From: a virus | Lineage: Duplodnaviria > Caudoviricetes | IMG/VR virus record: IMGVR_UViG_3300014204_000111 | Location: 32,001 to 96,000 of that record | Length of the DNA: 64,000 bases | Direction: 5' to 3' (one strand) | Part shown: positions 33,721 through 62,840 of the stretch, piece after piece | How the letters are laid out: each line of letters opens with the position of its first letter | How positions within the stretch are numbered: position 1 is the first letter of the stretch | The notes under the pieces: model-generated | The model's database searches: none | What the model was told of the DNA's origin: nothing | The model's input: only the letters and a program-made list of their open reading frames with translations | Program-made: the position numbers and the translations under genes

Positions 33721-33749
33721 GTTTAAAATCTCGTAGCAATGGGTATAAT
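33721..33749 (+). promoter_or_regulatory. Phage promoter (SigB-like)
   Basis: GTTTAA-N14-GGGTATAAT. Confidence 0.75.
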
Positions 33750-40067: not shown

Positions 40068-40095
40068 GTTTGAAACTTGGCTATAAGGGTATAAT
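40068..40095 (+). promoter_or_regulatory. Phage promoter (SigB-like) of pncB-pncA
   Basis: GTTTGA-N13-GGGTATAAT. Confidence 0.75.
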
Positions 40096-46819: not shown

Positions 46820-47182
46820 ATGGCAAAATTTCGTGATGCTAATGGAAACATTGTTGAAGGCGTAGCAATTAACGAAGCATCGGATAAGAGGATTCAAGCA
46901 AAGTTGGCTTGTGGTCTATCACCTCGTGGGCGCTTAATGAAGATTCCGGCGGATGATAATCAGGTTGTCCTTTTCAATGCTTATTCAGAGGCTCTTGAGT
47001 CTTTGATTAGTTCCGAGGATGCTCTAACTGTATTGGGCAAGACTACAATTAATATGCTTAGGACTGCTAAAGATAACCTATCAAAAGGTGTCAATGCATA
47101 TCAACGCATGAAGAGTAATGGTCTTACTCTTGCTGATTTTGCTAAGCCTGCTCCTGTGGTAGAAACTTCCGAAGTAGGGTAA
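46820..47182 (+). CDS. Hypothetical protein
   Basis: 120-aa ORF with its own promoter. Confidence 0.65.
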   Translation: MAKFRDANGNIVEGVAINEASDKRIQAKLACGLSPRGRLMKIPADDNQVVLFNAYSEALESLISSEDALTVLGKTTINMLRTAKDNLSKGVNAYQRMKSNGLTLADFAKPAPVVETSEVG

Positions 47183-47190
47183 ATTAAATA

Positions 47191-47525
47191 ACTACGTCTT
47201 AATTGAAAGGTTAAGAATATCGCACAGGGCAGCCTGGGGTGGTAAAATAGCTTAGAGAAGTTAGATGCCGCCAAGAGTGTTACTTGGCGGTTTTTGCTCC
47301 TGTGTTTAGGAACCTGCGAAAGTGGGTAAAATAAGACTAACAGCACCCAGAAGGCTTAGTTAGTGTCTTGTAACGGACAACTATCCTAAGTGCTTAGGAA
47401 AGTTTCCCATACTAAATGCCGACCACCTGGGTCTTTTATCTCGATATATCTCAGAAATTCTGCTATGGTTGTTAACCCTCTTATAAGAGGGCAGAGTGGA
47501 TTGTAAATTATCGAGTTTTCGTAGT
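47191..47525 (+). ncRNA. Large structured RNA of unknown class
   Basis: Many helices, two GAAA tetraloops, long-range pseudoknot, paired ends; no long + strand ORF. Confidence 0.6.
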
Positions 47526-47595
47526 CTCTTAGTTTAGCAGCAGAAACATTGCCTTGTCACGGCAAAGATAGCGAGGGCAGCACTCGTAGGGACTG
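47523..47595 (+). tRNA. tRNA-Asp(GTC), atypical T loop
   Basis: ttgcc-ttGTCac-ggcaa; acceptor AGTCTCT/AGGGACT. Confidence 0.8.
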
Positions 47596-47649
47596 TTTTA
47601 TTTTTAAAATTTGTTCATTGAAAATTGTTTGCAAATTATTAATAACAAT

Positions 47650-47929
47650 GCCCAGGTGGTGAAATTGGCAAACACAAGGGACTTACATAAAATTGAGCGT
47701 ATATAAAGGAATTTATATATGGATGTCGCCTAATTCGGTGAAACCTAAGTCAAAAGATATGGCAATACCGAGCCAAACTCTAATAAGAGAAGTGTGTAGA
47801 GACTATACAGCGACCATCCAGAACGGATGAAGATAGAGTCCAGACCCCAAACTTAACAGGTAGAGAAATCTATGGTGGTATGAAAATCCCTCGGCTTCGG
47901 TCTTACGGGTTCGATTCCCGTCCTGGGCA
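47650..47929 (+). tRNA. tRNA-Leu(TAA) interrupted by group I intron
   Basis: Exons 47650-47684 and 47883-47929 join to aggga-ctTAAaa-tccct. Confidence 0.9.
47685..47882 (+). mobile_element. Group I intron (198 nt, no ORF)
   Basis: Inserted after U34, ends in G; core AATTCGGTGAAACC, GTAGAGACTA, AAGATAGAGTCC. Confidence 0.9.
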
Positions 47930-48860
47930 TTTATTTTAAATTAGGAGATAATTATGGAGAAATCTTGTTGGTGGATAGAAGGTGGATTATGTTATTTAGA
48001 GCATAATCGTAGAAATACTACAGATGGACGTTCATGTGTTAAATGTAATGGTGTATGTAAGGGTTATATTTCTAAAAGAGAATTTCTTTCACAGTTTATT
48101 CCAAGTGATAAATTGATAATTATGAGCGAGGAAAGTAATATAAATGAAAATTCAATTGATTGTTTATGAAATTTTTGCATGTAATAGTCGTAGAATATTT
48201 CCAAGATTTCCATCTATTCCTCTTGGTGACAAAGTAGATTGTATAAAATTTATGATGATTTCTCATAATAATGTGGTTCCTTTATCAAAAATATGGAAAG
48301 CAACAAAGAGAAAAGAAGGTACACAATAAATGGATGTTAAATTAATTGCTCTTATTATTACGGCTATGGCAGACCATTATTTAGGATATGAATTTGATAT
48401 ACGTAACTTTTACCTTAAATATCATAAATCTATGAATCTTTGCTCAGGTAATAATTTAACTCATATTTGGTCACAGCTTGAACATAGAAGTATAAATTAT
48501 AAGCGGAGTGTAGAATGAAATTTTTATTTCCCAGGTTTATTGCTGTTGAAATGACACTAGGAACGTGGAAAGAAATTTGCCATTTAAATTTCTTTGATAA
48601 AAAATGTATGGCTTTAAATTATGTTTCAGGAACAACATTTTTATCTATGACAAGAATGTTAGAAGAGCTAAAAAAGCTTCTATAACACTGGAGAATACAA
48701 AGAAATGTATAGTATATTATGGTATATAAAATCTTCTATCTATATTAAGATAAAACGAGAATCAGGAATATCTCCTTCTTCTTTATCTCTTTACTGGAGA
48801 GTGTTATGTTTACTGAAAGGTGTTAATGTTTCCATAAATCTATAGCATATAAAATATCAA

Positions 48861-50325: not shown

Positions 50326-50353
50326 GTTTAAAACCTCCTAGAACGGGTATAAT
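50326..50353 (+). promoter_or_regulatory. Phage promoter (SigB-like)
   Basis: GTTTAA-N13-GGGTATAAT, 7 nt before tRNA-Gly. Confidence 0.75.
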
Positions 50354-55692: not shown

Positions 55693-55720
55693 GTTTTGAA
55701 AACGCTCTACGGGGTATAAT
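55693..55720 (+). promoter_or_regulatory. Phage promoter (SigB-like)
   Basis: GTTTTG-N13-GGGTATAAT. Confidence 0.7.
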
Positions 55721-58593: not shown

Positions 58594-58621
58594 GTTTAGA
58601 ATCGTGTGGGTTGGGTATAAT
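58594..58621 (+). promoter_or_regulatory. Phage promoter (SigB-like)
   Basis: GTTTAG-N13-GGGTATAAT. Confidence 0.75.
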
Positions 58622-62812: not shown

Positions 62813-62840
62813 GTTTGAGACTCTTCATCTTGGGTATAAT
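62813..62840 (+). promoter_or_regulatory. Phage promoter (SigB-like)
   Basis: GTTTGA-N13-GGGTATAAT. Confidence 0.75.

Follow-up and report, generated by a model that had tools for sequence, protein, structure and literature searches.

Is the structured stretch that abuts the tRNA-Asp gene of this phage one large RNA, or is it assembled from several smaller elements? The window (the whole stretch of DNA that was analysed, 64,000 nt) comprises bases 32001-96000 of a 220,861-bp IMG/VR phage genome in which terminal repeats are present; positions are those of the window unless they are named as genome positions. The locus lies at 47177-47525 in a + strand region that is dense in tRNA genes and very small open reading frames (ORFs). 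In a preliminary description it had been read as one structured RNA of about 335 nt, starting near 47191 from a promoter marked by the -10-like motif GGGTAAATT and running to the 5' end of tRNA-Asp, closed by the helix ACTACG/CGTAGT, tied together by a pseudoknot and possibly acting as a ribozyme or a tRNA-processing RNA. All of the helices and sequence elements quoted there were found at their positions, GGGTAAATT at 47177 among them, and fold energy, GC content, the ORF listing and the adjoining tRNA-Asp gene bear out a structured, non-coding, + strand stretch next to tRNA genes. One large RNA spanning the stretch is unlikely, as a promoter and a terminator split it. The stretch is read here, with somewhat better than even confidence, as the place where two transcription units of the early/tRNA region meet, made up of the tail of a gene with its terminator, a promoter and a two-hairpin RNA (Table 1).

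The stretch 47183-47525 was folded to -106.3 kcal/mol, with z-scores of -3.5 to -4.0 against dinucleotide shuffles. Calibration on the phage's own genome (55 random 343-nt windows) gave a mean z of -1.0 with a standard deviation of 1.5, and z <= -3.5 was reached by 3/55 of these random windows; the z-score alone therefore places the stretch only in the top ∼5%, which is unexceptional. Its GC content of 41% falls within the top 3% of 343-nt windows in a genome with about 31.6% GC (31.6-31.7%). For the whole region the + strand gave -106 and the - strand -90 kcal/mol, a gap that is accounted for by G-U pairs. Long-range contacts were scored by contiguous run; RNAduplex on whole sequences gave only long-loop duplexes. 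Scored in this manner, the two contacts that had been thought to hold the proposed RNA together stand at chance level: the 7-bp contiguous run of the long-range pseudoknot 47232/47422 was equalled or beaten in 185/200 shuffles, and a 6-bp terminal helix of the kind formed by ACTACG/CGTAGT (47191/47520) arose in 89/1000.

Table 1. Features of the locus and related sites, with coordinates in the window unless otherwise indicated
Feature	Coordinates	Strand	Description
ORF, 120 aa	46820-47182	+	Stop 47180-47182; directly upstream of the structured stretch
Direct-repeat copy 1	47149-47187	+	Degenerate early promoter: weak -35, -10-like GGGTAAATT at 47177-47185
Unit A, ∼105 nt	47191-47295	+	Hairpins 47197-47216 (GAAA loop), 47218-47244 and 47248-47263 (small), then the terminator-like hairpin
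Intrinsic-terminator-like hairpin	47267-47295	+	GCCGCCAAG/CTTGGCGGT, 9 pairs, 6 G-C, -14.6 kcal/mol, then T5
Early-type promoter P2	47304-47332	+	-35 GTTTAGGA 47304-47311, 12-nt spacer, -10 GGGTAAAAT 47324-47332
Unit B, 185 nt	47338-47522	+	Non-coding leader between P2 and tRNA-Asp
B module 1, ∼93 nt	47342-47434	+	Irregular rod closed by ACCCAG/CTGGGT, then TTTT; -28.1 kcal/mol
Inter-module linker TTTTATCTCGATA	47434-47446	+	Between B modules 1 and 2
B module 2, 76 nt	47440-47515	+	7-bp stem CTCGATA/TATCGAG, rod with small three-way tip, then TTTTCGT
tRNA-Asp(GTC)	47523-47595	+	Rfam RF00005, 38 bits
tRNA-Leu(UAA) with 198-nt group I intron	47649-47930	+	Rfam RF00028, 69.8 bits; ARAGORN intron option
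Other TTTTAWCTYGATA sites (same genome)	L058:5781-5793, L058:5863-5875	+	Both between modules of another RNA array
Further early promoters in the window	33721-33749, 40068-40095, 50326-50353, 55693-55720, 58594-58621, 62813-62840
Second-class motif sites	Window 21632, 26147, 33878; genome 132672, 156418, 160929, 214905, others

Promoter, putative terminator and duplicated segment

The early promoter was searched for genome-wide with the regular expression GTTTnnnn-N10-13-GGGTAWAWT, and Markov-simulated genomes were used as background. The consensus was found at 38 sites, against 0.23 in the simulations; 36/38 are + strand sites, in the interval from 50 to 130 kb of the genome. Its form is GTTT(G/A)(A/G)AA, followed after 11-12 nt by GGGTATAAT. 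Elsewhere in the genome, early promoters are placed either 4-9 nt before the 5' ends of tRNAs or, where a gene has an ATG with a GGAG-type Shine-Dalgarno sequence, ∼25-29 nt ahead of that ATG. From the 4-9 nt gaps between -10 boxes and tRNAs, and from ATGs 4-6 nt past GGGTAAAAT, a start of transcription near 47338 (+/-2) can be inferred for P2. The tRNAs that start 4-9 nt past a -10 box would have almost no 5' leader. A second class of motif, GGGTAAAAT without a -35 element (15 observed, 3 simulated), precedes many genes, structural/head genes among them, with 4-6 nt between it and the ATG; such a placement points to a late promoter whose mRNAs would have little or no leader.

The position of P2 bears directly on two of the helices that had been assigned to the large RNA. 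The sequence of the hairpin ACCTGC-GAAA-GTGGGT is present as described and serves as the spacer and the -10 box of the promoter; that of ACTAAC/GTTAGT is also present, with a 5' strand that straddles the predicted start site.

Upstream of P2 a G+C-rich hairpin stands directly before a U run, at which termination is predicted. It is the only strong terminator-like site within 20 kb and ends 13 nt upstream of the -35 element of P2. A layout of hairpin, GGTTTTTGCT and early promoter recurs at genome 122278 (122220-122335), where it ends another non-coding RNA array, and in both cases the early promoter follows 13-22 nt further on. A strong hairpin is missing before most of the 37 remaining early promoters, so the pairing of terminator and promoter does not hold generally across the genome. 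The consensus promoter and the terminator-like hairpin, both internal to the stretch, contradict its reading as one RNA of about 335 nt.

The P2 region is itself one copy of a direct repeat, 47149-47187 matching 47295-47334 with 77.5% identity over 40 nt. Copy 1 overlaps the final codons and the stop of the 120-aa ORF, and copy 2, the strong promoter, reads APVFRNLRKWVK-stop in the register of that ORF. Copy 2 thus still reads as an alternative in-frame C-terminus of the ORF, which fits an insertion of the segment in between (unit A); the repeat pattern suggests that these ∼105 nt were inserted by recombination between the duplicated promoter segments. A start from copy 1 is predicted near 47191; this weak copy is without the GTTT of the -35 element and may be inactive. 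Folded alone, 47191-47297 gave four hairpins at -34.2 kcal/mol, and a z of -3.9 was obtained for the + strand of 47190-47330. Unit A as modelled may be either the 3' tail of the transcript of the upstream ORF or a small RNA from the weak promoter copy.

The putative leader RNA and its linker

Unit B contains no + strand ORF of at least 40 aa and folds to -50.7 kcal/mol with a z of -2.7, the values for the two strands being equal (-2.70 and -2.68); against the background of the genome this z is unremarkable. When B was folded alone it formed two self-contained closed modules, each then followed by UUUU, and the segment that had been proposed to pair with 47232 paired with 47345-47350 instead. 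Module 1 begins 3-5 nt past the predicted start of P2 transcription; a tRNA-like three-way fold with a forced D arm was 3.2 kcal/mol worse. Module 2 has -22.3 kcal/mol and a z of -3.5. The 3' end of B is expected at the 5' end of tRNA-Asp, and tRNA-Leu(UAA) is probably on the same transcript as B and tRNA-Asp. The spacer between the two tRNA genes (47596-47648) is very AT-rich. CCA is not encoded in tRNA-Asp, and UUUU comes right after it. ARAGORN fails to call this tRNA; its T loop is GGCAGCA and its D loop AGCAGCAG, the usual forms being TTCRANY and GG.

The linker between the modules contains the motif TTTTAWCTYGATA, which occurs at three sites in the genome against 0.075 in simulations, all on the + strand, and a stem-closed RNA module stands immediately before every one of them. 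The other two sites belong to a second array of promoter-driven RNA modules with repeated linkers, which lies ∼42 kb from B and whose linker, TTTTAACTTGATAA, closely matches the B-module junction TTTTATCTCGATAT. The shared linker connects B with a tendency, seen across the genome, to form strings of small structured RNAs and, as judged from its recurrence, may be a common processing or termination signal. The RNA-module arrays of this phage resemble B in being promoter-driven, polycistronic and stem-closed, with U-rich linkers and TTTTAWCTYGATA in common; they include permuted tRNA mimics and long hairpins, whereas the modules of B have no T arm or other part of a tRNA. Promoter-proximal units at genome 100928-101050 and 104033-104140, and also at 103077 and 120734, have their T arm, their sealed acceptor-like hairpin and their D arm in an exchanged order; after circular permutation in silico, ARAGORN called a tRNA across the junction in 2/6 of the units tried.

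Known families and relatives

The stretch was compared with Rfam 15 using a 431-nt sequence, the laxest filters and E <= 10. Nothing was matched in 47183-47522, and the positive controls, intron and tRNA, were recovered at the scores listed in Table 1; the stretch belongs to no catalogued RNA family. GOLLD, ROOL, raiA, OLE, HEARO, 6S, tmRNA, YrlA and the other Rfam 15 families gave no match, and no tmRNA was called by ARAGORN. A group I intron (RF00028) is absent from 47183-47522; that of the neighbouring tRNA-Leu was detected in the same searches. The tRNA model gave no score on either B module at E <= 10, and ARAGORN at low threshold was also blank. tRNAs were all that the Rfam search returned over the rest of the genome; RNase P RNA, tmRNA and every other family were absent.

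For RNase P RNA both a model match and a P4 helix, in which a GGAAAGUCC strand pairs with a distant ACAGAA..GGCUUA strand, were looked for. The bacterial models (RF00010/RF00011) gave no match at E <= 10 in the 431-nt search, and AGGAAAGT (47396), in which an echo of RNase P had been seen, is the 3' strand of an ordinary local hairpin without a P4 partner; a P4-like helix was dropped, as this strand sits in the local stem. On inspection of the sequence two further candidates were set aside. Both CCTAAG and TATGG, the halves of the canonical 11-nt GAAA receptor, are present and are never opposite each other in any helix; the longest + strand frames, of 14 and 19 codons, have no ribosome-binding site that would point to a small protein. 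Nothing in the analysis points to catalysis or to the tRNA-processing role that had been proposed.

Relatives of the locus were sought by several routes. Distant-mode blastn of 47150-47620 against 50,697 phage records gave no match, and the structured stretch is single-copy in its own genome. Exact-pattern scans were run with the tRNA-Asp anticodon arm, the tRNA-Leu 5' end and the promoter consensus (viral contigs), with a B 19-mer (metagenomes) and a B 18-mer (prokaryote genomes), and with an 18-mer each from unit A and module 2; they returned unrelated tRNAs or isolated chance matches without flanking similarity. Covariance models built from the single sequences of the B modules found no paralogue in the genome, nor any in one distant relative. 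With no homologue, covariation cannot be tested, no helix has evolutionary support, and a new class, as had been suggested for the stretch, cannot be established.

The sequences around the locus are similarly isolated. No homologue of the 120-aa ORF was found among 5.8 billion proteins, and it belongs to no Pfam or PHROG family; the minus-strand 81-aa ORF at 47101-47346 was assigned to none either. The nearest relative of the DNA ligase is 35% identical and the best relative of the portal protein 60%. Judged by portal, ligase and flanking-ORF similarity, the phage is nearly an orphan. The one IMG/VR relative that was reached via the portal protein, to which it has 52% identity, is 202 kb long; it has one tRNA only, and neither blastn nor covariance models gave a counterpart of the structured stretch in it.

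Competing explanations and known systems

The preferred reading, a junction of two transcription units, was built on the elements, the promoter statistics and the folds described above; the ends of the transcripts, their termination and processing, and their stability are predictions from these. The transcript of the upstream ORF would cross the three small hairpins of unit A and end at the terminator; a short RNA launched at ∼47191 by the weak duplicate promoter may follow the same path. P2 would launch a new transcript near 47338, of which the first 185 nt would be B, with its two independently folding rod-like modules, their 6-7-bp closing stems and UUUU after each. This transcript would continue through B, tRNA-Asp and the intron-bearing tRNA-Leu in tandem and, going by what is established about the processing of pre-tRNAs, a cut by host RNase P at the 5' end of tRNA-Asp (47522/47523) would free B. 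The U-rich linker between the modules may be a second cut site. B would then be a further member of this phage's promoter-driven polycistronic small structured RNAs.

That the whole stretch is nevertheless one RNA, as in the preliminary description, is considered distinctly improbable. Such an RNA would have the good fold energy and z-score of the full stretch, two GAAA tetraloops and a start, predicted from the motif at 47177, that falls where the closing helix has its 5' strand; a further helix, GCACAGGGCA/TGCTCCTGTGT (47222/47295, -14.2 kcal/mol), bridges the terminator and, since it spans it, would form only in read-through RNA, which leaves this reading some room. A canonical promoter within the stretch speaks against it, as do a good terminator there, the pseudoknot and closing helix that are no better than chance, one GAAA hairpin that is the spacer of a promoter and a closing helix that competes with the acceptor stem of the tRNA; Rfam gave no ribozyme or large-RNA match, yet the same search detects the group I intron 150 nt off. 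It is very improbable that the palindromes act as DNA, as a replication origin or a site of recombination or packaging: B folds equally well on both strands and direct repeats flank A, but the region, which a promoter and co-oriented tRNA genes border, contains no iterons or AT-rich unwinding element and as a whole owes 16 kcal/mol of extra + strand stability to G-U pairs.

The other explanations concern B itself. It may be without function, a remnant of decayed tRNA or tRNA-like genes or filler from a rearrangement, with the leader being cut off by RNase P and degraded. This is judged unlikely: homologues and paralogues are lacking, module 2 is of tRNA size with a 7-bp closing stem, the D-arm-like GTTA..TAAC hairpin of module 1 resembles that of tRNA-Asp and the z-score is modest, but the GC content is 41% in a 31.6% genome in which the true spacer at 47596-47648 is very AT-rich, the modules are cleanly closed, a conserved linker is common to another RNA array and the tRNA model scores nothing even at E <= 10. 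Polymerase-modifying antitermination RNAs are known from phage HK022 (put type), and a cis-acting leader for the downstream tRNA genes, whether of this type, an attenuator pair or an antisense clamp on the 5' end of tRNA-Leu, would suit the position of B directly after a promoter and its two stem-loop domains with a U run after each. B at 47422-47432 is perfectly complementary over 11 nt to the start of tRNA-Leu (its first 11 nt, 47650-47660), at -22.6 kcal/mol, which would fit the clamp. This complementarity was equalled in 7/200 shuffles (p about 0.035, uncorrected for the many features examined), the 5' sequence of tRNA-Leu was found in an exact-pattern scan to be common and widely conserved, the closing stems, whose interiors are long and whose G-C pairs are few, would be weak terminators, and no riboswitch, T-box or leader family was matched; the complementarity is taken as a lead only, and a cis-acting leader is regarded as quite doubtful. 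A similarly small chance is given to B being a new kind of functional RNA that acts in trans or in cis, in a phage-wide system of processed modules with a dedicated linker or processing signal; its exposed CCGACCACCUGGGU would pair with the conserved 5' end of tRNA-Leu, either the intron-bearing one of the phage or that of the host, and so control the folding, splicing or availability of this tRNA. To call B a decoy or binding RNA would be a guess.

GOLLD and ROOL RNAs have sizes of roughly 600-800 nt. The stretch resembles these and RNase P RNA in its setting beside phage tRNA genes, its several hairpins and its GNRA loops, but its largest coherent unit has 185 nt, it forms no P4-type long-range helix and it has no Rfam match at E <= 10. 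In phage T4 RNAC and RNAD, two small RNAs, are released by the tRNA-processing machinery. These RNAs (species 1 and 2) are yielded by the T4 tRNA region and have no known role (PMC3014915). B is likened to them by genomic setting only, as a small non-coding RNA predicted to be cotranscribed among phage tRNA genes; it differs in heading its transcript rather than lying between tRNAs, and in having no recognisable tRNA-like arms. By this analogy B would belong to the loosely known kind of small RNAs of phage tRNA regions. The PeSL cassettes of T4-type phages consist of a stem-loop terminator and a repeated early promoter in a variable small-ORF region, flanking inserted pieces, and they shuffle small genes in these phages (PMC2839356, PMC4122927). 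The composite at 47267-47332, found also at genome 122278, and the 40-nt repeat flanking A are reminiscent of these; the promoter here is GTTTrrAA/GGGTATAAT, however, most of its copies are without a stem-loop, and the segment between the repeats is a 105-nt non-coding unit rather than an ORF.

If the reading as a junction of two transcription units is right, most of the stretch would be the ordinary punctuation of genes, namely terminator, promoter and leader, and not a candidate for a new large ribozyme. The promoter consensus would offer a simple means of delimiting all of the early transcription units of this genome. B would keep attention as a 185-nt orphan two-module RNA that is predicted to be made together with tRNAs, in a phage that is rich in non-coding tRNA-related RNAs, and the linker that it shares with another array suggests a common route by which the structured RNAs of this phage may be made and cut.
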